From IMG/VR virus record IMGVR_UViG_2531839127_000024, positions 1-23,432 of that record: a stretch of DNA of 23,432 bases; one strand, given 5' to 3'. The translations under genes and the position numbers were made by a program. Shown here in pieces: positions 1 to 23,432 of this stretch. The notes under the pieces were generated by a model. That model saw only the letters and a list, made by a program, of their open reading frames with translations, was not told the origin of the DNA and did not search any database. Position 1 is the first letter of the stretch. The number at the start of each line of letters is the position of its first letter. This DNA comes from a virus (lineage: Duplodnaviria > Heunggongvirae > Uroviricota > Caudoviricetes).

Positions 1-996
1 TTATGGACGCATTATGGACATTCCTGACACCGGGTTAAGAGTCACAGCATCTTGTAAGAAATCCGGTGCAAAGTGTGCGTAGGTCATAGTTTGCTGAATG
101 TTAGAATGACCCAGGATGCGCTGCAATGTGATTATGTTACCTCCATTCATTATAAAATGTGTGGCAAATGTATGCCTCAAAACATGCACTGCCTGTCCGT
201 CAGGTAAATCGGGTTTTACTTCCCTGAGAGCATTGCGCACTTTGTAGTAACTGGCATTAAAAAGCCTGCCTGAATTTTTGGTCTTGATCCGTTTAATCAG
301 GTCCTGCGAAACGGGAATTGTCCTGCGCTTTCCGTTTTTAGTTTTCATAAACGTAACCATCTGGTTAATGATGTGTTCAGCTTTCAAATTAGACACTTCA
401 CTCCAGCGTCCACCAGTAGAAAGGCAGACCAGAGTTGCATTTAACTCATCACCATCAAGCATGGATAACAGCCGCGTAATCTCTTCACTGGACAAAAAAG
501 CCATTTCAGTAACAGCTTCACGTAACCGCTTAACCTCACGGAACGGGTTGTGAGAGTGGTATTCACCGGCGTCAATTAACTTGGTGAACATCCCGCTCAT
601 TATTGCCAGATGCCGATTTACGCTGGCTGGTTTAAGACCATCGTTCATCATTACAACGCGATAATCAGTTATCGTTTTCTTTGTTAGCTGGTCAGCTCTG
701 GACACTCCCATTTCTGCAAATTTGGCGATTATTGTCGTCAAACGCCCCCGTTCAATATTTCCACGCTCATGTGATTTTCCGTGATATATCCACCATCTGC
801 CTAACAACTCTGTAAGAGTTCGGCGGTCGGCTGGCTTCTCCAGCCACTCTTTGTTGTGGTAGTTAACCAGCACATGACGTTCGAATGCTTGAGCTTCACC
901 TTTAGTTTTAAATTTCCGCCTGATACGTTTTCCATCTGCACCCTGCGGTCTGACGTCCACTTCATAACGACCATCATCGAGCTTTTTAATAGACAT
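1..996 (-). CDS. int: Tyrosine integrase (P2 Int family), 331 aa
   Basis: ORF with ATG at 996 preceded by GGAGGG; C-terminal catalytic motifs LRHTFATHF and TYAHFAP (H-x-x-R ... Y) typical of tyrosine recombinases; sits next to the repressor as in P2. Stop codon is at positions 1-3, so att lies left of the window. Confidence 0.92.
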   Translation of the reverse strand: MSIKKLDDGRYEVDVRPQGADGKRIRRKFKTKGEAQAFERHVLVNYHNKEWLEKPADRRTLTELLGRWWIYHGKSHERGNIERGRLTTIIAKFAEMGVSRADQLTKKTITDYRVVMMNDGLKPASVNRHLAIMSGMFTKLIDAGEYHSHNPFREVKRLREAVTEMAFLSSEEITRLLSMLDGDELNATLVCLSTGGRWSEVSNLKAEHIINQMVTFMKTKNGKRRTIPVSQDLIKRIKTKNSGRLFNASYYKVRNALREVKPDLPDGQAVHVLRHTFATHFIMNGGNIITLQRILGHSNIQQTMTYAHFAPDFLQDAVTLNPVSGMSIMRP

Positions 997-3346: not shown

Positions 3347-3618
3347 GGATTCGTATCGAAATTGGCGAACGTTATGTCGTTACCAGTGACAGCTTTCAGT
3401 TTATTCTCCACGAGAAAAAGAGAGCGGAAAGCGGTAAAAACGCCGGTCAGGAATGGCTGGCGGTGGTTGGTTATTACCCGAAATTAAGCCAGCTCGTTTC
3501 CGGCCTGATGCATCACGATATTCTGACCGGAAGCGCAAAGTCTTTTGCTGATTTAAACGCGCAGGTTGAGCAACTCAGCAGGCGTTGTTCAGAGGCTTTT
3601 GGCTCATATGGCCGTTAA
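3343..3618 (+). CDS. Small early protein (P2 orf83 position), 91 aa
   Basis: ATG 3343 overlaps the orf82 stop; GGAGAA RBS; overlaps the A start region. Confidence 0.6.
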   Translation: MRIRIEIGERYVVTSDSFQFILHEKKRAESGKNAGQEWLAVVGYYPKLSQLVSGLMHHDILTGSAKSFADLNAQVEQLSRRCSEAFGSYGR

Positions 3619-5893
3619 AGCCTCCGGGCGTTTTGTCCCTCCGTCAGCATTTGCTGCAGGCACCGGTAAGGCGTTTACCGGTGCTTATGCATGGAACGCG
3701 CCACGCGAGGCCGTCGGGCGCGAAAGACTCCTTACACGTGACGAGATGCGTCAGGTGCAAGGTGTTTTATCCACGATTAACCGCCTGCCTTACTTTTTGC
3801 GCTCGCTGTTTACTTCACGCTATGACTACATCCGGCGCAATAAAAGCCCGGTGCACGGGTTTTATTTCCTCACATCCACTTTTCAGCGTCGTTTATGGCC
3901 GCGCATTGAGCGTGTGAATCAGCGCCATGAAATGAACACCGACGCGTCGTTACTGTTTCTGGCAGAGCGTGACCACTATGCGCGCCTGCCGGGAATGAAT
4001 GACAAGGAGCTGAAAAAGTTTGCCGCCCGTATCTCATCGCAGCTTTTCATGATGTATGAGGAACTCTGCGATGCCTGGGTGGATGCGCATGGCGAAAAAG
4101 AATCGCTGTTTACGGATGAGGCGCAGGCGCATCTGTATGGTCATGTTGCTGGCGCTGCACGTGCTTTCAATATTTCCCCTCTCTACTGGAAAAAATACCG
4201 TAAAGGACAGATGACCACGAGGCAGGCATATTCTGCCATTGCCCGTCTGTTTAACGATGAGTGGTGGACTCATCAGCTTAAAGGCCAGCGTATGCGCTGG
4301 CATGAGGCGTTACTGATTGCTGTCGGGGAGGTGAATAAAGACCGTTCTCCTTATGCCAGTAAACATGCCATTCGTGATGTGCGTGCGCGCCGCCAGGCAA
4401 ATCTGGAATTTCTTAAATCGTGTGACCTTGAAAACAGGGAAACCGGCGAGCGCATCGACCTTATCAGTAAGGTGATGGGAAGTATTTCTAATCCTGAAAT
4501 TCGCCGGATGGAGCTGATGAACACCATTGCCGGTATTGAGCGTTACGCCGCCGCAGAGGGTGATGTGGGGATGTTTATCACGCTGACCGCGCCGTCAAAG
4601 TATCACCCGACACGTCAGGTCGGAAAAGGCGAAAGTAAAACCGTCCAGCTAAATCACGGCTGGAACGATGAGGCATTTAATCCAAAGGATGCGCAGCGTT
4701 ATCTCTGCCGCATCTGGAGCCTGATGCGCACGGCATTCAAGGATAATGATTTACAGGTCTACGGTTTGCGTGTCGTCGAGCCACACCACGACGGAACGCC
4801 GCACTGGCATATGATGCTTTTTTGTAATCCACGTCAGCGTAACCAGATTATCGAAACCATGCGTCGCTACGCGCTCAAAGAGGATGGCGACGAAAGAGGA
4901 GCCGAGCGAAACCGTTTTCAGGCGAAACACCTTAACCGGGGCGGTGCTGCGGGGTATATCGCGAAATACATTTCAAAAAATATCGACGGCTATGCACTGG
5001 ATGGTCAGCTCGATAACGATACCGGCAGACCTCTGAAAGATACTGCCGCGGCTGTTACTGCATGGGCGTCAACGTGGCGCATCCCGCAATTTAAAACGGT
5101 TGGTCTGCCGACAATGGGGGCTTACCGTGAACTACGCAAATTGCCTCGCGGCGTCAGCATTGCTGATGAGTTTGACGAACGCGTCGAGGCTGCACGCGCT
5201 GCCGCAGACAGTGGCGATTTTGCGTTGTATATCAGCGCGCAGGGTGGGGCAAATGTCCCGCGCGATTGTCAGACTGTCAGGGTTGCCCGTAGCCCGTCGG
5301 ATGACGTTAACGAGTACGAGGAAGAAGTCGAGAGAGTGGTCGGCATTTACGCGCCGCATCTCGGCGCGCGTCATATTCATATCACCAGAACGACGGACTG
5401 GCGCATTGTGCCGAAAGTTCCGGTCGTTGAGCCTTTGACTTTAAAAAGCGGCATCGCCGCGCCTCGGAGTCCTGTCAATAACTGTGGAAAGCTCACCGGT
5501 GGTGATGCTTCGTTACCGGCTCCCACACCTTCTGAGCACGCCGCAGCAGTGCTTAATCTGGTTGATGACGGTGTTATCGAATGGAATGACCCGGAGGTCG
5601 TGAGGGCGCTCAGAAGCGCATTAAAACACGGTCTGAGAAGACCAAACCGTCAGCAAAGAAACGGAAACCCGTTAAAACCGCATGAAATAGCGCCATCGGC
5701 CAGACTGACCCGGTCAGAACGATTGCAAATTACCCGTATCCGCGTTGACCTCGCTCAGAACGGTATCAGGCCGCAACGATGGGAGCTTGAGGCGCTGGTG
5801 CGTGGCGCGACCGTAAATTATGACGGGAAAAAATTCACGTATCCGGTCGCTGATGAGTGGCCGGGATTCTCAACAGTAATGGAGTGGACATGA
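3608..5893 (+). CDS. A: Rolling-circle replication initiator A (761 aa)
   Basis: From ATG 3608 the protein starts MAVKASGRFVPP and is exactly 761 aa, matching P2 gpA as I recall it; contains HWHMMLF (HUH-like) motif. Track start at 3566 is TTG. Confidence 0.9.
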   Translation: MAVKASGRFVPPSAFAAGTGKAFTGAYAWNAPREAVGRERLLTRDEMRQVQGVLSTINRLPYFLRSLFTSRYDYIRRNKSPVHGFYFLTSTFQRRLWPRIERVNQRHEMNTDASLLFLAERDHYARLPGMNDKELKKFAARISSQLFMMYEELCDAWVDAHGEKESLFTDEAQAHLYGHVAGAARAFNISPLYWKKYRKGQMTTRQAYSAIARLFNDEWWTHQLKGQRMRWHEALLIAVGEVNKDRSPYASKHAIRDVRARRQANLEFLKSCDLENRETGERIDLISKVMGSISNPEIRRMELMNTIAGIERYAAAEGDVGMFITLTAPSKYHPTRQVGKGESKTVQLNHGWNDEAFNPKDAQRYLCRIWSLMRTAFKDNDLQVYGLRVVEPHHDGTPHWHMMLFCNPRQRNQIIETMRRYALKEDGDERGAERNRFQAKHLNRGGAAGYIAKYISKNIDGYALDGQLDNDTGRPLKDTAAAVTAWASTWRIPQFKTVGLPTMGAYRELRKLPRGVSIADEFDERVEAARAAADSGDFALYISAQGGANVPRDCQTVRVARSPSDDVNEYEEEVERVVGIYAPHLGARHIHITRTTDWRIVPKVPVVEPLTLKSGIAAPRSPVNNCGKLTGGDASLPAPTPSEHAAAVLNLVDDGVIEWNDPEVVRALRSALKHGLRRPNRQQRNGNPLKPHEIAPSARLTRSERLQITRIRVDLAQNGIRPQRWELEALVRGATVNYDGKKFTYPVADEWPGFSTVMEWT

Positions 5894-6378
5894 TGGCAAA
5901 AATTCACGAGGTAAAGCTGCACGCAAAATATTTCGACCTTGTACTGGAAGGAAAAAAACGCGCAGAGTTTCGGAAAAATGACCGTAATTATGAGCGCGGG
6001 GACACGTTGATTTTGCATGAATGGGTGCAGGGTGTGTTTACGGGGCGAAAGGTTGAAGCCCGGATAACAGATGTTACTGACCTGTCAGACTGGCTGGAAG
6101 ATTATGTCTTGCTAAGTATTGAGCTGCTTAATACGGGCGCATATAAGATTGTGAACTGGAAAGAACTTAGTGAACGTGGTCTGGTATTCAGAATTAATCA
6201 TGAAATTATGCATCAGCTCGGCCTTGCTGTTATGTATGAACCAGAGACGGGCTGTCTGGCGGGGCAGTGGTTGCTGCGGATGGGATATGGAACTATTCAG
6301 ATGAACAGGTGGAGCGTGCAAAGCAAAACGGGTGGCTTGGATAATGCACAGAATACCAGGCGAGATACCGCACCATAA
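5890..6378 (+). CDS. ASCH/DUF3850-like protein (P2 orf91-like N-terminus) with about 70-aa C-terminal extension
   Basis: ATGATG at 5890-5895 overlaps the A stop; GGAG RBS at 5881; N-terminus MAKIHEVKLHAKYFDLVLEGKKRAEFRK is ASCH-like. 162 aa versus 91 aa for P2 orf91. Confidence 0.65.
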   Translation: MMAKIHEVKLHAKYFDLVLEGKKRAEFRKNDRNYERGDTLILHEWVQGVFTGRKVEARITDVTDLSDWLEDYVLLSIELLNTGAYKIVNWKELSERGLVFRINHEIMHQLGLAVMYEPETGCLAGQWLLRMGYGTIQMNRWSVQSKTGGLDNAQNTRRDTAP

Positions 6379-6550: not shown

Positions 6551-6773
6551 AGAACGCCGCCAGTCGTGAAACTTGTTTTCAGGGCTGGCGGGGTTGAACA
6601 ACGAGCGTAGCGAGGCGTTAGTTGACAGACATATTTTTACTGCGTTGGTGCCGGTTTTTGACGGTTGAAAGGAGTTAGGTTGGAGAGCTAACAACTTACA
6701 AATATTCAAAAGTAAGCATCCTGTTGCTAACATGAGGTCGATTTTTTATGTGGATGATGCAAAAAGGATAGCT

Positions 6774-7505
6774 ATGGATACTATAATCGCTTTTCTATCA
6801 CTCGCTTTTTTCGTTGCTTTCTTCATCGGGTTAATCAAGCCATCACTGGTGCGAATGCCAAACCGCAAACGTGCAAGTGCGGTTTATCTCGGAGGAGGTT
6901 TTGTATTGAGCATAATTGGTTCAATACTCTATCCAACAGAAAAAAGCCAGCCAGTTGATAAAACTGAAACATCAACCGTTGCAGAACATAAAGTCCAAAA
7001 AACATTCGAATATGGTGAAAAAACACTCAAGGAATATCGGAACGAGTCAAAGAAAACACGACACGATATTGTGAATAGTTACATTGATTTTAAGGAAGTT
7101 CCAGCCACCGCGTCAGATGCGTTTTATGCCTGCATGAGTGAATATACATTTACCAAAGATGATGAGTTGAAACTCGGTGATGTTCTTGGGTGGTGCTTTA
7201 ATGATTATGAAAATGACCCGAATTCACTAAACAATAAAATCAATCTTGATACATTTCAGAGTAATTTTAGTGGTTGGGATGGTTCTTATCGTCCATTGGA
7301 AAAACTAATTAAAGATAATATGAACGATGATTCATCTTATAAACATGTATCAACGGTATATCATCTGGTTTTGAATAAAGACCCGCATGCCATTGTGAAA
7401 ACCACGTTTCGCGGAACTAATGCTTATGGCGGAGTGGTGAAACAGACGATTGCTGCGCGTGTTGATATAAAAACTGGTAAGGTGATATCAATCATAGATA
7501 ATTGA
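6774..7505 (+). CDS. Cargo protein 1: unrecognised membrane protein, two N-terminal TM helices plus about 180-aa soluble domain (243 aa)
   Basis: AAAGGA RBS 5 nt upstream of ATG 6774 (in-frame alternative ATG 6732); hydrophobic segments IIAFLSLAFFVAFFIGLI and VYLGGGFVLSIIGSILY separated by basic loop RMPNRKRAS; AT-rich codon usage unlike the phage backbone. Confidence 0.7.
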   Translation: MDTIIAFLSLAFFVAFFIGLIKPSLVRMPNRKRASAVYLGGGFVLSIIGSILYPTEKSQPVDKTETSTVAEHKVQKTFEYGEKTLKEYRNESKKTRHDIVNSYIDFKEVPATASDAFYACMSEYTFTKDDELKLGDVLGWCFNDYENDPNSLNNKINLDTFQSNFSGWDGSYRPLEKLIKDNMNDDSSYKHVSTVYHLVLNKDPHAIVKTTFRGTNAYGGVVKQTIAARVDIKTGKVISIIDN

Positions 7506-7614: not shown

Positions 7615-8397
7615 ATGAAAATTATAAACCAACTTAAGAAGTTTGATAAGAAAAGAACGCCAGATGATGGCCGTATTAGTTTGTTATATGAAAACGCGAT
7701 TAAGTATGATATGTACTCTGTATATATTAAAGATAAAAATGATACAGAATACCTCTTTGACTGTTTGGTTGATGGGAAGATAAAGGCTTTTAAATGGGAT
7801 GATGAGGAGCGTAGATTTCATATAAGTTCATGCTTGGATATTTCTGAGGTTACGCCTGATTCTTTTTTTGGTGTTTACTACTACCGTGCGCATGAGTTGC
7901 GATTTAACTCTTTAAATGATTTAACATTTTTAAGGGAGTTGTTCTTTAGAGTAAAGTCTAATTATGAAAATATAAAGTTTAGTCGTGAAAAATATATTTA
8001 TCGACAGCAAAAAAAAGAAATAACTGATGTGATGTTTGTTCTCTCAACGATTATAAGAATGTATCGTGAATGGGATGCTCAAACTGTGTTTAGTGAGTTT
8101 TCAATAATGACCGAAGTCGCTGGTAGTTTATGGGTATACCATGACGATAAAAACAGGATGCGTAAAGAGCTTCGTTTATGCCTGAATTCTCTTGTTCAGA
8201 ATGGAGATCTTGTTGAAACAAGTAGTGGATTTAGGCCAACAGGAAAGGCACTGAACACAATATCTACATTCAATAAAGATGAGGTGCGGTACAGAGAGAA
8301 TTTGAGTACTCAGAAGAAAATGTTTTGGGCTACTTTTTTCGCAGCAGTCGGCGGCGTAGGAAGTATGATTGCAGCTATAATAGGGCTTCTAAAATGA
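7615..8397 (+). CDS. Cargo protein 2: unrecognised protein with cytoplasmic N-domain and single C-terminal TM helix (260 aa)
   Basis: ATG ORF; very AT-rich; C-terminal hydrophobic segment FWATFFAAVGGVGSMIAAIIGLL preceded by KK; no catalytic motif recognised. Confidence 0.7.
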   Translation: MKIINQLKKFDKKRTPDDGRISLLYENAIKYDMYSVYIKDKNDTEYLFDCLVDGKIKAFKWDDEERRFHISSCLDISEVTPDSFFGVYYYRAHELRFNSLNDLTFLRELFFRVKSNYENIKFSREKYIYRQQKKEITDVMFVLSTIIRMYREWDAQTVFSEFSIMTEVAGSLWVYHDDKNRMRKELRLCLNSLVQNGDLVETSSGFRPTGKALNTISTFNKDEVRYRENLSTQKKMFWATFFAAVGGVGSMIAAIIGLLK

Positions 8398-12580: not shown

Positions 12581-12638
12581 CCGGCGTCAGTCAGTCCGGG
12601 AAAACCTTCACGATTAACCCTTAATTTCAGGAAAAACT

Positions 12639-13712
12639 ATGCGCCAGGAAACCCGCTTTAAATTTAATGCCTACCTGTCCCGTGTTGCCGAACTGAACGG
12701 CATCGACGCCGGTGATGTGTCGAAAAAATTCACCGTTGAACCGTCGGTCACCCAGACCCTGATGAACACCATGCAGGAGTCCTCTGACTTTCTGACCCGC
12801 ATCAACATTGTGCCGGTCAGCGAAATGAAAGGGGAAAAAATTGGTATCGGTGTCACCGGCCCCATCGCCAGCACCACCGACACCGCCGGTGGCACCGAGC
12901 GTCAGCCGAAGGACTTCTCGAAGCTGGCGTCCAACAAGTACGAATGCGACCAGGTTAACTTCGATTTTTATATCCGCTACAAAACGCTGGACCTGTGGGC
13001 GCGTTATCAGGATTTCCAGCTCCGTATCCGTAACGCCATTATCAAACGCCAGTCCCTTGATTTCATCATGGCCGGTTTTAACGGCGTGAAGCGTGCCGAA
13101 ACCTCTGACCGCAACAGTAATCCGATGCTGCAGGATGTGGCGGTCGGCTGGCTGCAGAAATACCGCAATGAAGCCCCGGCGCGCGTGATGAGCAAGGTCA
13201 CTGACGAGGAAGGGCACACCACCTCTGAGGTTATCCGCGTGGGTAAGGGCGGTGATTATGCCAGCCTTGACGCACTGGTGATGGATGCGACCAATAACCT
13301 GATTGAGCCGTGGTATCAGGAAGACCCTGACCTTGTGGTGATTGTGGGACGTCAGCTACTGGCGGACAAGTATTTTCCCATCGTCAACAAGGAGCAGGAC
13401 AACAGCGAAATGCTGGCTGCTGACGTCATCATCAGCCAGAAACGCATCGGTAACCTGCCGGCGGTACGCGTCCCGTACTTTCCGGCGGATGCGATGCTCA
13501 TCACGAAGCTGGAAAACCTGTCCATCTACTACATGGATGACAGCCATCGCCGCGTGATTGAGGAAAACCCGAAACTCGACCGCGTGGAGAACTACGAGTC
13601 AATGAACATTGATTACGTGGTGGAAGACTACGCCGCCGGTTGTCTGGTGGAAAAAATTAAGGTCGGTGATTTCTCCACACTGGCTAAAGCGACCGCAGAG
13701 CCGGGAGCGTAA
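12639..13712 (+). CDS. N: Major capsid protein (357 aa)
   Basis: Length equals P2 gpN; follows the scaffold gene. Confidence 0.9.
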   Translation: MRQETRFKFNAYLSRVAELNGIDAGDVSKKFTVEPSVTQTLMNTMQESSDFLTRINIVPVSEMKGEKIGIGVTGPIASTTDTAGGTERQPKDFSKLASNKYECDQVNFDFYIRYKTLDLWARYQDFQLRIRNAIIKRQSLDFIMAGFNGVKRAETSDRNSNPMLQDVAVGWLQKYRNEAPARVMSKVTDEEGHTTSEVIRVGKGGDYASLDALVMDATNNLIEPWYQEDPDLVVIVGRQLLADKYFPIVNKEQDNSEMLAADVIISQKRIGNLPAVRVPYFPADAMLITKLENLSIYYMDDSHRRVIEENPKLDRVENYESMNIDYVVEDYAAGCLVEKIKVGDFSTLAKATAEPGA

Positions 13713-17481: not shown

Positions 17482-17926
17482 GTTTAAGCGTTTTGAAGAC
17501 CGGCTGACCGGACTGATTGAATCGCTGTCACCGTCAGGGCGTCGGCGACTGAGTGCCGAACTGGCGAAGCGCCTGCGGCAGAGTCAGCAGCGTCGGGTGA
17601 TGGCACAGAAAGCCCCGGACGGCACACCCTACGTGCCACGCCAGCAGCAGAGCGCCAGAAAAAAGACTGGTCGTGTTAAGCGAAAAATGTTTGCGAAACT
17701 TATCACCAGTCGTTTTTTGCATATCCGCGCCAGCCCGGAGCAGGCATCAATGGAGTTTTACGGCGGGAAGTCACCGAAAATCGCCAGTGTGCATCAGTTC
17801 GGTCTGTCGGAAGAAAACCGGAAAGACGGTAAGAAAATTGATTATCCGGCGCGCCCTCTGCTCGGCTTCACCGGTGAGGATGTACAGATGATTGAAGAGA
17901 TTATCCTGGCTCACCTCGACCGTTAG
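17474..17926 (+). CDS. S: Tail completion protein S (150 aa)
   Basis: Length equals P2 gpS; overlaps the R stop. Confidence 0.88.
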   Translation: MNEFKRFEDRLTGLIESLSPSGRRRLSAELAKRLRQSQQRRVMAQKAPDGTPYVPRQQQSARKKTGRVKRKMFAKLITSRFLHIRASPEQASMEFYGGKSPKIASVHQFGLSEENRKDGKKIDYPARPLLGFTGEDVQMIEEIILAHLDR

Positions 17927-17992
17927 TTGTGCCATTCCCGACACCTCATCGTCACATTGCCGCCGGTATGACCCGGCGGCATCCTTCCCGTT
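17927..17992 (+). promoter_or_regulatory. S-V intergenic region: hairpin (putative terminator of the O operon) and expected late promoter for V
   Basis: Perfect 8-bp stem GCCGCCGG (17959-17966) / CCGGCGGC (17973-17980) with 6-nt loop but no U-tract; partial dyad TGT-N10-ACA at 17928-17943; operon boundary in P2. Confidence 0.4.
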
Positions 17993-18628
17993 ATGAACAC
18001 TCTCGCAAATATTCAGGAACTCGCGCGCGCACTGCGCAACATGATCCGCACCGGCCTTGTCGTCGAAACCAACCTTAAAGCCGGTCGCTGCCGTGTGCAG
18101 ACCGGCGGCATGTGCACCGACTGGCTTCAGTGGCTGACCTGTCGTGCCGGGCGTTCGCGCACATGGTGGGCACCTTCCGTGGGGGAGCAGGTGCTGATTC
18201 TGGCCGTGGGCGGTGAACTTGACACGGCGTTTGTTCTGCCGGGGATTTATTCCGGCGATAACCCCGCGCCGTCTGCGTCGGCGGATGCCCTGCATATCCG
18301 TTTCCCTGACGGGGCGGTGATTGAGTATGAACCTGAAACCAGTGCACTGACGGTAAGCGGAATTAAAACGGCCAGCGTGACGGCTTCTGATTCTGTTACT
18401 GCCACGGTGCCGGTGGTCATGGTGAAAGCGTCAACCCGCATCACCCTGGACACCCCGGAGGTGGTCTGCACCAACAGACTGATTACCGGCACGCTGGAAG
18501 TGCAGAAGGGCGGGACGATGCGCGGCAACATTAAACATACCGGCGGTGAACTCTCATCAAACGGTAAGGTACTGCATACCCATAAACACCCCGGCGACAG
18601 CGGCGGCACAACCGGGAGTCCTCTATGA
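17993..18628 (+). CDS. V: Baseplate spike/assembly protein V (211 aa)
   Basis: Length equals P2 gpV; first gene of the baseplate operon. Confidence 0.9.
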   Translation: MNTLANIQELARALRNMIRTGLVVETNLKAGRCRVQTGGMCTDWLQWLTCRAGRSRTWWAPSVGEQVLILAVGGELDTAFVLPGIYSGDNPAPSASADALHIRFPDGAVIEYEPETSALTVSGIKTASVTASDSVTATVPVVMVKASTRITLDTPEVVCTNRLITGTLEVQKGGTMRGNIKHTGGELSSNGKVLHTHKHPGDSGGTTGSPL

Positions 18629-19885: not shown

Positions 19886-20489
19886 TTCGCGACTGCTGCC
19901 GACCGGCTCATCACTGCTTGAAGTTGCCGCCGCAAAAGCCTGTGCGGAAATTGAAAAAACGCCGGTCAGTATTCGTGAGCTGTGGAACCCGGATACCTGT
20001 CCGGCAAATCTGCTGCCGTGGCTGGCGTGGTCATTTTCGGTTGACCGCTGGGATGATAAGTGGCCGGAAGCGACAAAACGCGCTGTTATCCGCGATGCGT
20101 ATTTCATTCACTGCCATAAGGGCACTATTGGTGCGATTCGCCGTGTGGTGGAGCCACTCGGCTATCTGATTGAGGTGAGGGAGTGGTGGCAGCTCAACGA
20201 GGAGCCGGGGACGTTCCGTATCGTTGTCGGCGTGCTTGAGCAGGGTATTACCGAGGAAATGTATCAGGAGCTGGAGCGCCTCGTTGCTGATGCAAAACCG
20301 GCAAGCCGCCATCTGACGGGACTGGCTATCAGTTTAAGTACAACCGGCAACATTTTTGCCGGTGCGGGATGCTATCACGGCGACGCCCTGACGGTTTATC
20401 CCTACACCCCGGAGGCCATTATTGTCGGAGGGGATTATTTCCCGGCCTCGGCCATTCATTTAATTGATAACCTGAGAGTAAACGCATGA
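19878..20489 (+). CDS. I: Baseplate/tail protein I (203 aa)
   Basis: GGAGG RBS; overlaps the J stop and the H start; synteny with P2 I. Confidence 0.85.
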   Translation: MSDSRLLPTGSSLLEVAAAKACAEIEKTPVSIRELWNPDTCPANLLPWLAWSFSVDRWDDKWPEATKRAVIRDAYFIHCHKGTIGAIRRVVEPLGYLIEVREWWQLNEEPGTFRIVVGVLEQGITEEMYQELERLVADAKPASRHLTGLAISLSTTGNIFAGAGCYHGDALTVYPYTPEAIIVGGDYFPASAIHLIDNLRVNA

Positions 20490-21898
20490 CAGTGAAATAC
20501 TACGCCATTCTGACTAATCAGGGCGCAGCACGGCTGGCTAACGCGACGATGCTCGGCAGTAAGCTGAATCTGACGCAAATGGCCGTTGGTGATGCGAATG
20601 GTGTCTTGCCGACACCAGACCCGGCACAGACAAAACTGATTAACCAGAAACGCATCGCGCCGCTGAATCTTCTGAGTGTTGACCCGAACAACCAGAGCCA
20701 GATTATTGCGGAGCAAATCATCCCTGAGAACGAGGGCGGATTCTGGATCCGTGAGATTGGGCTTTATGATGATGAAGGCGTACTCATTGCGGTGGCGAAC
20801 TGCCCGGAAACGTACAAACCGCAGTTGCAGGAAGGCAGCGGTCGTACCCAGACTATCCGCATGATTCTGGTTGTCACGAATACCGAAGCCATCACGCTGA
20901 AAATCGACCCGTCGGTGGTACTGGCGACCCGTAAATACGTGGATGATGAAGTCCTGGAATTAAAGCTGTATGTGGATGACCAGATGAGAAACCACATTGC
21001 CGCACAGGATCCTCATACCCAGTATGCACAGAAACATAATCCGACATTTACCGGAGAACCAAAAGCGCCGACGCCTGCCGCAGGAAATAACACCACGCGG
21101 ATTGCGACCACTGCGTTTGTACAGGCCGCTATTACCGCTCTGATTAACGGTGCGCCTGCCACGCTGGATACACTGAAAGAAATTGCCGCAGCCATTAACA
21201 ATGACCCGAAATTCAGCACCACCATTAACAATGCGCTGTCAGGTAAGCAGCCACTGGATGAGACGCTGACTCATTTGAGTGGGAAGGATGTTGCCGGTCT
21301 TCTCGCATACCTTGGTTTGGGAGAAGGCTCTGCATTACCTGTTGGTGTCCCTGTTCCGTGGCCTTCAGCCACTCCGCCAACAGGCTGGCTGAAATGCAAT
21401 GGTGCGGCTTTTTCTGCTGAAGAATACCCGGAACTGGCAAAGGCTTACCCGACAAATAAATTGCCAGATTTACGTGGTGAGTTTATTCGTGGCTGGGATG
21501 ACGGGCGAGGGATTGATGAGGGGCGCATACTTCTCAGTTGTCAGAGTTTTGCTTTCCAGGACCATGCGCACGCTCTGCCAACCGGAGTGGGTAATCCGTC
21601 AGACCAGATGGAAAGCGATATCTATGCGGTTTTCAACGATGTACCAGAAATACCCAGTGCGGCCCTGAGTCCATCGTCGTCAGGAACATCATGGGACGCA
21701 ACCAGTAGGGCAGACAAGGTAATCCTTTATCGCAAGGACCTTTCACCAACAGGTAATAACAACGCAATAGCGACCGGATTACCACCATTCAGGACTTACA
21801 GGGCATCGACCTCAGACGGTGTTACTCATCCGTCCGTGTACGCATCTGAAACCCGTCCGCGCAACATTGCATTTAACTACATCGTGAGGGCTGCATAA
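20486..21898 (+). CDS. H: Tail fibre protein H (470 aa): conserved N-terminus, shared shaft segment, and collar-type receptor-binding tip
   Basis: N-terminus is P2 H-like (GGFWIREIGLYDDEGVLIAVAN); C-terminal tip has tail-collar-like motifs (LPDLRGEFIRGWDDGRGID, ETRPRNIAFNYIVRA). Residues encoded by 20879-21326 are duplicated in inverted orientation downstream. Confidence 0.9.
   Translation: MTVKYYAILTNQGAARLANATMLGSKLNLTQMAVGDANGVLPTPDPAQTKLINQKRIAPLNLLSVDPNNQSQIIAEQIIPENEGGFWIREIGLYDDEGVLIAVANCPETYKPQLQEGSGRTQTIRMILVVTNTEAITLKIDPSVVLATRKYVDDEVLELKLYVDDQMRNHIAAQDPHTQYAQKHNPTFTGEPKAPTPAAGNNTTRIATTAFVQAAITALINGAPATLDTLKEIAAAINNDPKFSTTINNALSGKQPLDETLTHLSGKDVAGLLAYLGLGEGSALPVGVPVPWPSATPPTGWLKCNGAAFSAEEYPELAKAYPTNKLPDLRGEFIRGWDDGRGIDEGRILLSCQSFAFQDHAHALPTGVGNPSDQMESDIYAVFNDVPEIPSAALSPSSSGTSWDATSRADKVILYRKDLSPTGNNNAIATGLPPFRTYRASTSDGVTHPSVYASETRPRNIAFNYIVRAA
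20879..21326 (+). repeat. Left arm of 448-bp perfect inverted repeat (inside H)
   Basis: Reverse complement of 22985-23432 is identical at every block I compared (position p pairs with 44311 minus p); truncated by the window end, so true length is at least 448 bp. Confidence 0.9.
21300..21325 (+). other. Candidate 26-bp serine-invertase crossover site (hix/gix/cix-like), left
   Basis: TTCTCGCATACC-TT-GGTTTGGGAGAA: two imperfect 12-bp inverted half-sites of the TTnTCnnAAACC type around a central dinucleotide, ending 1 bp inside the inner boundary of the inverted repeat. Confidence 0.6.
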
Positions 21899-22503
21899 TG
21901 GCGAAAGCAAAATTAAACAGTGCGTTTATTGCCACCGTGGCAGGAGAAATCACTGTGTACAACTACCGGGGCGACACCCGCGAATACATATCCTCATCGG
22001 TTGAGTATCTGCCTGTGGGGGTGGGTATTCCTGCCAATTCCTGTACCGATGCGCCCGGCACACATAAGGCTGGTTATGCAATCTGCCGTTCTGCAGATTT
22101 TAACTCATGGGAATATGTGCCAGACCATCGCGGTGAAATTGTCTATGGCATCGAAACGGGGGAATCAAAAGAAATTACTGTGCCGGGGGATTACCCTGAA
22201 AATACGACCACTTTTGCCCCATTAACGCCATACGATAAATGGGATGGTGAGAAATGGGTAACAGATACCGAGGCACAGCATAGCGCCGCAGTAGATGCAG
22301 CAGAAGTACAGCGCCAGTCTCTGATTGATGCTGCTATGGCTTCCATCAGTCTGATTCAGCTGAAATTGCAGGCCGGACGTAAACTGACGCAGGCAGAAAC
22401 AACCCGCCTTAACGCTGTGCTGGATTACATTGACGCGGTGACGGCAATAGATACCAGCACCGCGCCTGATATTATTTGGCCTGTATTCCCTGAGACTGAT
22501 TAA
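21898..22503 (+). CDS. G: Tail fibre assembly chaperone (Tfa/gpG-like), 201 aa
   Basis: ATG overlaps the H stop; N-terminal VYNYRGDTREY...LPANSCTDAP is typical of lambda Tfa/Mu U-type chaperones. Confidence 0.85.
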   Translation: MAKAKLNSAFIATVAGEITVYNYRGDTREYISSSVEYLPVGVGIPANSCTDAPGTHKAGYAICRSADFNSWEYVPDHRGEIVYGIETGESKEITVPGDYPENTTTFAPLTPYDKWDGEKWVTDTEAQHSAAVDAAEVQRQSLIDAAMASISLIQLKLQAGRKLTQAETTRLNAVLDYIDAVTAIDTSTAPDIIWPVFPETD

Positions 22504-22669
22504 CCTCAATCAGTATTGGTTCGCCTTTCTCATTAATTGTTAGCTCCATGCCCTGAGGAATTTCTGTCATAGTAAAAAACCAGTTGTCCTCCGGTAATTC
22601 AATAGCCCCGGTCACGTCATGAAGACCGGGGATTACTTCAGTCAAAGTAACTGGATTAAACAGGCGCAC
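22472..22669 (-). CDS. Putative short alternative tail fibre assembly chaperone (65-86 aa depending on start)
   Basis: Minus-strand ORF immediately downstream of the alternative fibre tip; GGAGGG RBS before GTG at 22669 (track start 22732); 3' end overlaps G convergently by 32 nt. No Tfa motif recognised, so the call is positional. Confidence 0.4.
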   Translation of the reverse strand: MRLFNPVTLTEVIPGLHDVTGAIELPEDNWFFTMTEIPQGMELTINEKGEPILIEVNQSQGIQAK

Positions 22670-23432
22670 AATAAACCCTCCATGAAAAAGCATTTGATGA
22701 TGGTCTGCCGTCGTACATCTGGCAGCGGGCATAAAAGCCGGTATTTGTTACCTGATCATCCACGATCATTGAAACGTGAACATTATTAGGTGTGCTCTCG
22801 TAATCCGTTCTTATTCTTTCTGCGATACTGATAAAACGTGAAAGTTTAGGCAGTGCAATTGGGTAAACGACTTTAGCCAGTCCATTATCATTAGATCCAC
22901 CGGTTCCAAATACTTCTATTGCACCATCTGACCAGCGTACCCATGCACCATTGGCATTAGCTCCTCGCTGAATGACATATCTGGCTTCTCCCAAACCAAG
23001 GTATGCGAGAAGACCGGCAACATCCTTCCCACTCAAATGAGTCAGCGTCTCATCCAGTGGCTGCTTACCTGACAGCGCATTGTTAATGGTGGTGCTGAAT
23101 TTCGGGTCATTGTTAATGGCTGCGGCAATTTCTTTCAGTGTATCCAGCGTGGCAGGCGCACCGTTAATCAGAGCGGTAATAGCGGCCTGTACAAACGCAG
23201 TGGTCGCAATCCGCGTGGTGTTATTTCCTGCGGCAGGCGTCGGCGCTTTTGGTTCTCCGGTAAATGTCGGATTATGTTTCTGTGCATACTGGGTATGAGG
23301 ATCCTGTGCGGCAATGTGGTTTCTCATCTGGTCATCCACATACAGCTTTAATTCCAGGACTTCATCATCCACGTATTTACGGGTCGCCAGTACCACCGAC
23401 GGGTCGATTTTCAGCGTGATGGCTTCGGTATT
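22656..23432 (-). CDS. Alternative tail fibre gene or gene segment, partial; 5' end beyond the window
   Basis: Minus-strand ORF whose first 149 codons in the window are identical to H (inverted repeat) and then diverge into a different 110-aa C-terminal tip; no in-frame stop up to the window edge. Confidence 0.75.
   Translation of the reverse strand, partial: NTEAITLKIDPSVVLATRKYVDDEVLELKLYVDDQMRNHIAAQDPHTQYAQKHNPTFTGEPKAPTPAAGNNTTRIATTAFVQAAITALINGAPATLDTLKEIAAAINNDPKFSTTINNALSGKQPLDETLTHLSGKDVAGLLAYLGLGEARYVIQRGANANGAWVRWSDGAIEVFGTGGSNDNGLAKVVYPIALPKLSRFISIAERIRTDYESTPNNVHVSMIVDDQVTNTGFYARCQMYDGRPSSNAFSWRVYCAPV
22985..23432 (-). repeat. Right arm of 448-bp perfect inverted repeat (truncated by window end)
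   Basis: See left arm; identity stops exactly at 21326/22985. Confidence 0.9.
22986..23011 (-). other. Candidate 26-bp serine-invertase crossover site (hix/gix/cix-like), right
   Basis: TTCTCCCAAACC-AA-GGTATGCGAGAA read on the plus strand; inverted copy of the left site, again at the inner repeat boundary. Confidence 0.6.

Follow-up and report, generated by a model that had tools for sequence, protein, structure and literature searches.

Evidence for a two-state Pin-type invertible tail-fibre module in a P2-like prophage of Escherichia coli P0299917.x, with a reversed copy of H at the contig end best read as an assembly artefact

Background

The exchange of tail-fibre tips by an invertase is a textbook mechanism, known from Mu, P1 and e14 onwards. 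The locus analysed here raises two linked questions: whether a fibre gene of a P2-like phage, bounded with its neighbours by matching inverted sites, belongs to such a switch, and why a second, reversed piece of the same gene stands at the very end of the contig. The window, i.e. the whole stretch of 23,432 nucleotides that was analysed, agrees with its source contig APYK01000117.1, of assembly GCA_000357165.1, without a mismatch and stops 2 nt short of the end of that contig. Our reading, to which we assign a probability of about 0.93, is that the locus is a two-state invertible tail-fibre module of the Pin type in a P2-like prophage of E. coli P0299917.x, and that the reversed H at the contig end is an artefact of assembly. 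The sibling isolates used for comparison are those of the E. coli P0299917.x series, including P0299917.5 and P0299917.8; 5-8 substitutions per 12 kb separate their contigs from the window, a distance that may reflect close relationship or draft errors and does not make them proven clones.

Results and discussion

Identity of the prophage and content of the invertible segment

The Pfam families encoded in the window follow the P2 gene order, i.e. int ... Q P O N M L X holin lysA/B/C R S V W J I H G, with the integrase at positions 1-996, and annotated P2-type prophages share 97-99% identity with the window. By these sequence features the phage is P2-like (Peduoviridae), and the window represents the left two-thirds of the prophage (int ... 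V-W-J-I-H-G). Two cargo ORFs, at 6732-7505 and 7615-8397, gave no match in PADLOC or Pfam.

In the orientation of the window, the whole H gene spans 20486-21898 on the plus strand and carries a PF12571 domain in residues 1-150. Its constant part, residues 1-280 (20486-21326, plus strand), lies outside the invertible segment and is the same in both fibres up to the sequence ...LLAYLGLGE. The unique invertible segment follows as 1,658 bp at 21327-22984, and both tips with their accessory genes lie inside it. On the plus strand, it encodes tip 1, which comprises the C-terminal 190 residues of H (21327-21898) with a Collar domain (PF07484) at residues 287-334, and the 201-aa protein G, the tail-fibre assembly protein for tip 1 (21898-22503; PF02413 Caudo_TAP, E=2e-30; phrog_105), whose start overlaps the stop codon of H (TAATG). 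The minus strand encodes a 65-aa ORF (22472-22669; phrog_5400, to which no function is assigned there) and the 109-residue tip 2 cassette (22656-22985), identical at 100% to the corresponding part of the proteins P0002 and P0004 of sibling isolates. This gene content agrees with the first-pass annotation, which had placed the H tip and G on one strand and an alternative tip with a short ORF on the other.

The constant part of H joins either tip in frame, giving a fibre of 470 aa with tip 1 and of 389 aa with tip 2 (P0002); the two share residues 1-280 and diverge thereafter. Tip 2 is silent in the native form of the window's orientation, and inversion turns it into the end of the in-frame 389-aa fibre. 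In the flipped siblings it is tip 1 that is reduced to a silent ORF, of 207 aa, on the other strand. By sequence, tip 2 has no match among solved structures or in Pfam and only its predicted fold is informative: the AF2 model (pLDDT 84) resembles the foot of the R1/R2 pyocin fibres and gp53 of AP22.

The short ORF next to tip 2 had been described as a chaperone. The part of this description that stands is its position as the partner of the alternative tip; the chaperone label itself comes from conserved position, as the protein shows no similarity to PF02413 (Caudo_TAP, the family of lambda Tfa, Mu U and P2 G). It has no match in Pfam or NCBIfam, and an hhalign profile comparison with G returned a probability of 0.2%, i.e. 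the two are unrelated. Homologues with 48-78% identity occur in Klebsiella, Kosakonia and Lelliottia, and in the latter two genera, where H-tip 2 is fixed, the homologue alone separates it from the sheath gene. From this conserved position, the 65-aa protein is a probable accessory or chaperone of tip 2. This conserved partner gene of pyocin-foot-like fibre tips, 54-65 aa in length, falls into none of the described chaperone families and may repay further study.

Crossover sites and the inverted repeat

The left, H-side site is a 26-bp element, TTCTCGCATACC-TT-GGTTTGGGAGAA, at 21300-21325 on the plus strand, where it encodes the LLAYLGLGE of H; its exact reverse complement is found at 22986-23011. 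It consists of two 12-bp half-sites, which agree with each other at 10/12 positions within one site, around a 2-bp AA/TT core. The first-pass annotation had proposed a pair of 26-bp inverted sites of the serine-invertase type about 1.7 kb apart, with identity between the arms ending 1 bp beyond each, and on both points it was right. The degenerate invertase-site pattern occurs in the window at these two places only, against 0.00 expected from 100 shuffles, and a half-site scoring scan of the window yielded no third site, the two sites scoring 18.6 and the next best candidate 13.2. Identity between the arms stops at 21326 and 22985, i.e. at the inner ends, 1 bp past each site. A feature that had gone unmentioned is that the repeat also continues outward beyond the 26 bp, as a perfect inverted repeat of 448 nt (20879-21326 and 22985-23432, 100% identical) that reaches the end of the window; in the source contig it measures 450 nt and extends up to the contig end.

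The native prophage is organised differently on the right. Its right site is TTCTCCCAAACC-AA-CGTTTATGAAAA, found in this native form in a sibling contig (L012, 12501-12526) as TTCTCCCAAACCAACGTTTATGAAAA, and the true inverted repeat is just 15 nt long. In the right site as printed in the window (22986-23011, plus strand), the native part comprises the inner half and the core (22986-22999), and the outer half (23000-23011) is derived from the H side. The right-hand site in the window is thus an assembly chimera, representing the junction of the flipped orientation. Comparison of finished strains 61 and 64 and of the sibling contigs confines the point of exchange to the 15 nt at 21312-21326, a stretch that contains the central TT. 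An arrangement like that of the P1 C segment, with long repeats inside the segment and sites at its outer ends, is ruled out, as both finished genomes and siblings place the breakpoints within the 26-bp sites, where the window's repeat has its inner ends.

Both orientations among sibling isolates and finished genomes

The first-pass annotation had proposed a search for the segment in both orientations, and both are observed. In two sibling contigs (L012 and L015) the prophage is complete and its 1,658-bp segment is the exact reverse complement of that in the window, with 0 mismatches; the segment is followed by the right site, a 197-aa gene with Resolvase and HTH_7 domains, the genes from the sheath to D, ogr, and host DNA. 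Across the contigs of the P0299917.x series, H is joined to tip 1 in five and to tip 2 in six. In one assembly, APYN, both junctions are present on separate contigs, and a single I-H constant sequence is linked to either tip, as is expected of one prophage that flips. The same holds at a homologous locus in the finished sister strains 61 and 64, where an exact inversion of the segment, with identical coordinates, is the sole difference over 9.8 kb.

A junction census of 5,426 complete E. coli genomes recovered the H-tip 1 junction in 488 and the H-tip 2 junction in 36, counts that do not amount to a clean ratio of orientations because tip 1 also occurs with other partner cassettes. Separately, a 41-mer scan of IMG/VR identified another P2-like phage, in which the segment has the opposite orientation.

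The invertase gene

The invertase gene is absent from the window and from its own contig, which stops before the position that the gene would occupy; the link between module and invertase is drawn from sibling assemblies and relatives. In sibling contigs APYP01000022.1 and APYR01000126.1, which carry the same prophage, the 197-aa Resolvase+HTH_7 gene lies 55 nt past the right site and is followed by the sheath gene, so that the Hin/Gin-family invertase that had been expected to the right of the module is indeed there. In L012, it occupies 12581-13174 (PF00239 and PF02796; phrog_125, 'DNA invertase'). The closest finished relatives have the same layout, with invertase and then sheath gene past the module; the nearest of them, E70, is 99.0% identical over window positions 1-21327 and continues with the module, the recombinase and the sheath gene.

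The protein is 88% identical to Pin of e14 (PinE), 80% to Cin and 76% to Gin, and its best match among solved structures is Gin (3UJ3, E=7e-95). Its ORF is intact, and the MLIGYVRVS9 motif with the catalytic Ser9 is conserved. The first 215 coding nucleotides are 90% identical to pinE and include, at +71, a match to the degenerate Fis consensus that is common to this gene, pinE, gin and cin; no second Fis site stood out clearly at the expected spacing.

The reversed copy of H at the contig end

Positions 22985-23432 carry, on the minus strand, a reverse copy of the H constant region 20879-21326 that runs to the contig end, in the place where the native siblings have the invertase and sheath genes. 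This copy is best read as an assembly artefact of a culture of mixed orientation, and not as a second H gene. The assembler would have joined the segment to reads from the other orientation and stopped 450 nt later, at the contig end. Consistent with the artefact, none of 5,426 complete E. coli genomes matches at least 80% of window positions 20400-23432 in one place. A perfect repeat of H together with a flipped junction at the contig end implies that the culture contained both orientations when it was sequenced, and we therefore infer a mixed-orientation population in the APYK culture. One detail, the arm length of exactly 450 nt, counts against the artefact, as assembler logic gives no account of it. 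A fold-back or hairpin artefact of the library is ruled out, because 1,658 nt of unique DNA lie between the arms, with the recombination sites as exact limits.

The printed layout could also be literal, with the chromosome, or a sizeable sub-population, carrying two H genes that converge on the segment, as might result from invertase-mediated recombination between two P2-like prophages or between two copies of one. Such an arrangement is found in the finished genome of bR_120_Kylling (NZ_CP182374.1), where V-W-J-I-H-G faces tfa-H'-I'-J'-W'-V' with H-type sites at both ends, the reciprocal junction (sheath'-invertase', segment, invertase-sheath) is found at a distance of about 97 kb, and the window's phage has a 97% relative in one of the two prophages. 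The two junctions are at 2.142 Mb and 2.237-2.241 Mb of that genome. A contig that ended where two copies of H lose their identity would likewise explain the abrupt end of the arm. However, the arms in bR_120_Kylling are just 75-77% alike, whereas those of the window are 100% identical, and among the genome matches no mosaic boundary recurs at position 20877. Furthermore, sibling contigs of 162-164 kb cross the prophage from host DNA to host DNA without a break at H; as a single contig spans host, prophage and host, the prophage must be single-copy and H unrepeated in those genomes. The same unbroken contigs make a second prophage with a shared H constant region an unlikely source of the copy, and the linkage of one I-H constant sequence to either tip in APYN also speaks for one flipping prophage over two facing H genes. 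We consider the literal layout improbable. Similarly poor odds attach to the idea that the H-facing-H end was a real molecule in part of the culture, formed when the invertase joined sites on two prophage copies, be they on sister chromosomes or in a second P2-like prophage. If it were true, tail-fibre invertases would also drive chromosome rearrangement, splitting prophages and re-pairing their halves.

The bR_120_Kylling genome may deserve attention in its own right, as it contains two P2-like prophages whose halves have been exchanged across their invertible modules. By sequence comparison, an event of the kind just described appears to lie behind the roughly 97-kb inversion between them.

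In annotation, where a perfect inverted repeat beside a fibre gene extends to the end of a contig, it should be taken as a mis-join across an invertible segment and not as a second gene. Such a repeat can also serve, at no extra cost, as evidence that the culture contained both orientations when it was sequenced.

Is the switch still active, and what drives it?

The module might be a fossil that no longer inverts, the orientations in the databases being old fixed states. Decay of related loci is on record: the e14 module of K-12 sits in a defective prophage, and in E70 the H gene is annotated as a pseudogene and the inner half-site is one C shorter. Against this, near-identical isolates of one series differ in orientation with 0 mismatches across the segment, both junctions occur in the one assembly APYN, nothing but the inversion distinguishes strains 61 and 64 over their 9.8-kb locus, and the invertase has an unbroken ORF that retains the catalytic Ser9. 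We regard a fossil as very unlikely, even more so than two facing H genes. Least credible of all is inversion by general homologous recombination (RecA) on the inverted repeats, for which the perfect 448-nt repeat printed in the window would be long enough; that repeat is, however, an artefact, correctly assembled copies have a 15-nt inverted repeat, which is shorter than a useful RecA substrate, and the breakpoints fall within a 26-bp invertase-type site with a Pin-like invertase gene adjoining. A shufflon, which uses the tyrosine recombinase Rci and multiple sfx sites, is ruled out by the two sites in the window and the adjacent serine-type recombinase.

Under the two-state Pin-type module that we favour, the small serine invertase encoded just to the right would act on two 26-bp sites, one inside H and the other before its own gene. 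If it works like Gin, Hin and Cin, it would make staggered cuts at the central AA/TT, rotate the half-sites by 180 degrees and religate them, and a Fis-bound enhancer in the 5' end of the invertase gene is probably needed. The N-terminal 280 residues of H, being outside the segment and promoter-proximal, would be transcribed with the late V-W-J-I-H operon in either state. State 1 provides the Collar-type tip 1 on a 470-aa fibre with the Caudo_TAP chaperone G, and state 2 the pyocin-foot/gp53-like tip 2 on a 389-aa fibre with its 65-aa partner. A population of lysogens would release particles with two receptor specificities. The precedent of Mu and P1 and the differing folds of the tips (Collar versus pyocin-foot-like, the latter from a predicted model) suggest that inversion changes the host range. 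The layout of a Gin/Cin/Pin-type host-range switch, as originally proposed for this locus, is supported by the invertase, the orientations and the sites, with the refinement that its closest counterpart is the Pin/pix system.

Comparison with known systems

Canonical P2 (NC_001895) agrees with the window's phage in gene order from int to H-G and in the late tail operon, but its H is a fixed gene of 669 aa, followed by G, a terminator, fun(Z) and FI. Neither a crossover site (with up to 3 mismatches) nor an invertase was found in NC_001895, which bears out the view that the module is foreign to canonical P2 with its I-H-G-terminator-fun(Z)-FI arrangement. The invertase module occupies the Z/fun hotspot, a placement that has been noted for P2-like phages (bioRxiv 10.1101/2024.10.15.618418).

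The G segment of Mu (D108) and the C segment of P1 follow the same logic, with the constant fibre gene S outside the segment and Sv/U and Sv'/U' inside it. The half-site pattern is common to e14, P1 and the gix site of D108, and the match is best with e14: P1 sites agree at 18-19/26 positions and D108 gix at 17/26. The gix core is GA whereas the core here is AA, and the phage families differ. The P1 segment contains 0.6-kb inverted repeats inside it; the long repeat of the window is unlike these, being an artefact located outside the sites.

The closest likeness is to the P segment of e14 (Pin, pix), where an I-like gene, the constant part of the fibre gene, a site, a tip with its tfa, the opposing tfa' and tip', a second site and the invertase follow in the same layout. 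The native right site agrees at 26/26 positions with the site next to pinE of K-12, and the H-side site at 23/26 with the left site of e14. The two differ in their cassettes, which are the stfE'/tfaE and stfP/tfaP tip-tfa pairs in e14 as against tip 2 with its 65-aa ORF here, and in their setting, as e14 is a defective remnant with stfE annotated as a pseudogene whereas the P2-like prophage around the present module appears to be complete. For e14, sequencing and PCR have demonstrated the inversion experimentally (PMC4272514).

The same study documented, again by sequencing and PCR, inversions in two P2-like prophages of EPEC E2348/69, with both fibre variants coexisting in clonal cultures (Goldberg et al. 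2014; PMC4272514). Compared by their published description, these loci belong to the same kind of phage and likewise use an invertase and inverted repeats to alter the C-terminus of the fibre; one of them has three repeats and four variants, whereas the window has two sites (PMC4272514). This kind of switch is thus already known, including by experiment in P2-like prophages of E. coli (PMC4272514), so that the present locus adds little to the biology and its practical value lies in annotation.

The crossover sites and the invertible segment

The window covers the left part of a P2-like prophage and opens with an integrase gene (1-996, minus strand), followed by replication, head, lysis and baseplate genes up to I, the tail-fibre gene H and G. 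The 26-bp site TTCTCNNNWACCWWGGTWTNNGAGAA is present twice, at 21300-21325 and, as a perfect reverse complement, at 22986-23011; a pattern scan finds it at no other place in the window, and the pattern has 0 expected occurrences in shuffled sequence. A half-site scoring scan of the window likewise detects no third crossover site, the two sites scoring 18.6 each, against 13.2 for the runner-up. Within H the site is read in frame and codes for LLAYLGLGE. The two sites are 1,658 nt apart, and the segment between them carries the last 190 codons of H (tip 1, with the Collar domain) and G (Caudo_TAP) on the plus strand, and an alternative tip of 109 codons (tip 2) and a 65-codon ORF (22472-22669) on the minus strand. 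The first-pass annotation was therefore correct both in placing two inverted 26-bp sites here and in its account of the enclosed genes.

Both orientations and the native layout

In complete genomes that share these cassettes the order is V-W-J-I-H-G, the 65-aa ORF and a reversed tip on the other strand, a site, a gene for a "recombinase family protein", and the tail sheath gene. The closest finished relative, E70, is 99.0% identical over window positions 1-21327, the match stopping at the site, and has a recombinase gene and then the sheath gene downstream of its fibre module. Two contigs of the P0299917.x series to which the window belongs, APYP01000022.1 (163.6 kb) and APYR01000126.1 (162.2 kb), contain the whole prophage with host DNA on both sides. 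Their order is I, the constant part of H (residues 1-280) joined to tip 2, the 65-aa ORF, reversed G and tip 1, and the right site, TTCTCCCAAACCAACGTTTATGAAAA, which precedes a 197-aa Resolvase+HTH_7 gene; sheath, tube, E, T, U, D and ogr follow. The invertase gene sought to the right of the module is thus present in these siblings, and reversing and complementing their segment reproduces window 21327-22984 with 0 mismatches.

Both orientations were likewise found more widely. Among the P0299917.x contigs five carry the H-tip 1 junction and six the H-tip 2 junction, and assembly APYN (GCA_000357305.2) has both, on different contigs. A full-length 389-aa fibre combining the constant part of H, as in the right arm of the window, with tip 2 is represented by proteins P0002 and P0004, whose first 280 residues are those of the window H (with one substitution in P0004); by their source names all three come from the series "Escherichia coli P0299917.x". 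At this locus the sister genomes of strains 61 and 64 are distinguished solely by the orientation of the homologous 1,658-bp segment, which is precisely inverted at the same coordinates and 100% identical once reversed, and the exchange can be placed in 15 nt common to both sites, central dinucleotide included.

In E70 (NZ_CM173937.1 982500-992500, site at 2326-2351 of this locus) the annotation gives H as a pseudogene, truncated where the crossover site lies. Its inner half-site, TTCTCCAAACC, has one C less than TTCTCCCAAACC; either the switch has truly decayed or a homopolymer was misread in sequencing.

The long inverted repeat at the contig end

The site pair is present as first described, but the repeat extends far beyond 26 bp: 20879-21326 pairs with 22985-23432 at 100% across 448 nt, the right arm reaching the window end. 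As established by exact-protein look-up, the window matches the draft contig APYK01000117.1 (GCA_000357165.1, 74,204 bp) with 0 mismatches and stops 2 nt short of its end, and in the contig the repeat is 450 nt. As it runs to the contig end, what the window holds past the second site is the reversed constant part of H and not the right flank of the phage. At least 80% of window 20400-23432 in one place was found in 0 of 5,426 complete E. coli genomes.

The right arm is the H-tip 2 junction, reversed and joined to a contig of the H-tip 1 orientation; the module proposed in the first-pass annotation is supported, with the one correction that its right-hand site as printed, with the 448-nt arm, is very probably an assembly chimera. 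The sibling contigs that run from host to host show a single-copy prophage, and both junctions therefore cannot share one molecule. A mis-join by the assembler, in a culture containing both orientations, is the simplest explanation of the reversed arm. The same assembler produced redundant contigs with arbitrary ends (e.g. APYN...116, 1.17 kb repeated from APYN...021), and all 5/5 H-tip 1 contigs break off within or just past the module, the place where a mixed population would confuse it.

These five contigs end at window positions 21951, 22086, 22790, 22898 and 23434, and contigs crossing the module are of the H-tip 2 orientation only (WGS sets APYK to APYS). In these draft assemblies contigs break systematically at invertible segments.

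That two H genes can truly face each other is seen in the finished genome of bR_120_Kylling (NZ_CP182374.1), in which H-G faces tfa-H'-I'-J'-W'-V' (primes denote reversed copies) with H-type sites at both sides. However, its H arms are only 75-77% alike, whereas those of the window are identical, and the sibling isolates have one intact prophage; a real rearrangement in the window is hence highly improbable. A Pin-type invertible fibre module with a mis-joined contig end accounts for the data as a whole with a probability of roughly 0.93.

When back-to-back invertase-sheath arms were used as query against the 5,426 genomes, with a baseline of 50%, only bR_120_Kylling rose above it: at 2.237-2.241 Mb reversed sheath and invertase genes, a fibre segment, and invertase and sheath genes follow one another, with invertase-type sites on either side. 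This locus (NZ_CP182374.1 2233887-2244098) and the H-facing-H locus (2137834-2147006) appear to be the reciprocal junctions of an inversion spanning ~97 kb, by which two distinct P2-like prophages are joined head to head at their fibre modules. Both end points of the apparent inversion fall in invertible modules, and both prophages are split.

The two tips and a small putative accessory ORF

The partner of tip 1 is G, a standard Caudo_TAP protein; the start of its gene overlaps the stop codon of H. Tip 2 has no Pfam match and no PDB sequence match; its AlphaFold model (pLDDT 84) resembles the C-terminal foot of R1/R2 pyocin fibres and AP22 gp53 (Foldseek probability 1.0, TM 0.61-0.67), a domain with which P2-type tails bind their receptors. 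The 65-aa ORF is conserved at 48-78% identity in Klebsiella, Kosakonia and Lelliottia. In P2-like prophages of the latter two, H-tip 2 is fixed and nothing but this ORF separates it from the sheath gene, the loci having no Caudo_TAP gene and no invertase, so that the ORF occupies the position of G as sole accessory gene. It is unrelated to G and Caudo_TAP and belongs to no Pfam or NCBIfam family, matching only PHROG 5400 (unknown function). A putative role as tip 2 chaperone is accordingly reasonable from its position. Further copies lie at 5151-5336 in the Kosakonia locus (L020), 5350-5514 in locus L021 and 5151-5348 in locus L022, and these 54-65-aa ORFs may constitute an undescribed small family of fibre accessory proteins or chaperones. 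They share the core motif TEV.PG.HD.TG...LP.D.WFFT and always stand 3' of a pyocin-foot-like tip 2.

Other cargo

ORFs of 257 aa (6732-7505) and 260 aa (7615-8397), both on the plus strand and with neither Pfam nor PADLOC match, lie between the replication region (A, 3566-5893; ASCH/DUF3850 protein, 5857-6378) and the portal gene. This slot corresponds to the P2 old/tin cargo hotspot, which frequently carries anti-phage genes. Between S and V the window has only a 66-nt gap (17926-17993). Relatives carry extra cargo there (locus L001, 1-594; locus L003, 1-622; the Kosakonia locus, 782-1477): in strain 23CRST001 it encodes a TIR-domain protein, in strain 61 a hypothetical protein and in Kosakonia a DUF6216 protein.

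The invertase and comparison with known systems

The invertase of the sibling contigs is 88% identical to e14 PinE, 80% to P1 Cin and 76% to D108 Gin, keeps the MLIGYVRVS9 motif, and has Gin (3UJ3, E=7e-95) as its best match among solved structures. The first 215 coding nt of its gene are 90% identical to pinE, and a Fis-consensus match at +71 is common to this gene, pinE, gin and cin. The enhancer position in such invertase genes is known and agrees with this match, which may belong to a Fis-dependent enhancer. Compared with published sites, the native right site is identical to the K-12 e14 site adjoining pinE (26/26), and the H-side site agrees in 23/26 positions with the left site of e14, in 18/26 with the P1 site adjoining cin and in 17/26 with D108 gix.

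Canonical P2 (I-H-G-terminator-fun(Z)-FI) has no crossover site and no invertase, as the first-pass annotation had held in setting the module apart from it. Its reading of the layout as Gin/Cin/Pin-type switching agrees with the invertase, the sites, the two orientations and the order of parts in e14 of K-12, which is that of the native module here. Inversions have been found in two P2-like prophages that EPEC E2348/69 carries, as well as in e14, with PCR confirming coexistence of the variants (Goldberg et al. 2014, PMC4272514), and a 2024 preprint describes DNA invertases with inverted neighbouring genes at the Z/fun hotspot of P2-like phages (bioRxiv 10.1101/2024.10.15.618418). Hundreds of complete E. 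coli genomes have junctions like those of the window. The element is of an already known kind, a member of the Pin/Gin/Cin family that is nearest to Pin/pix.
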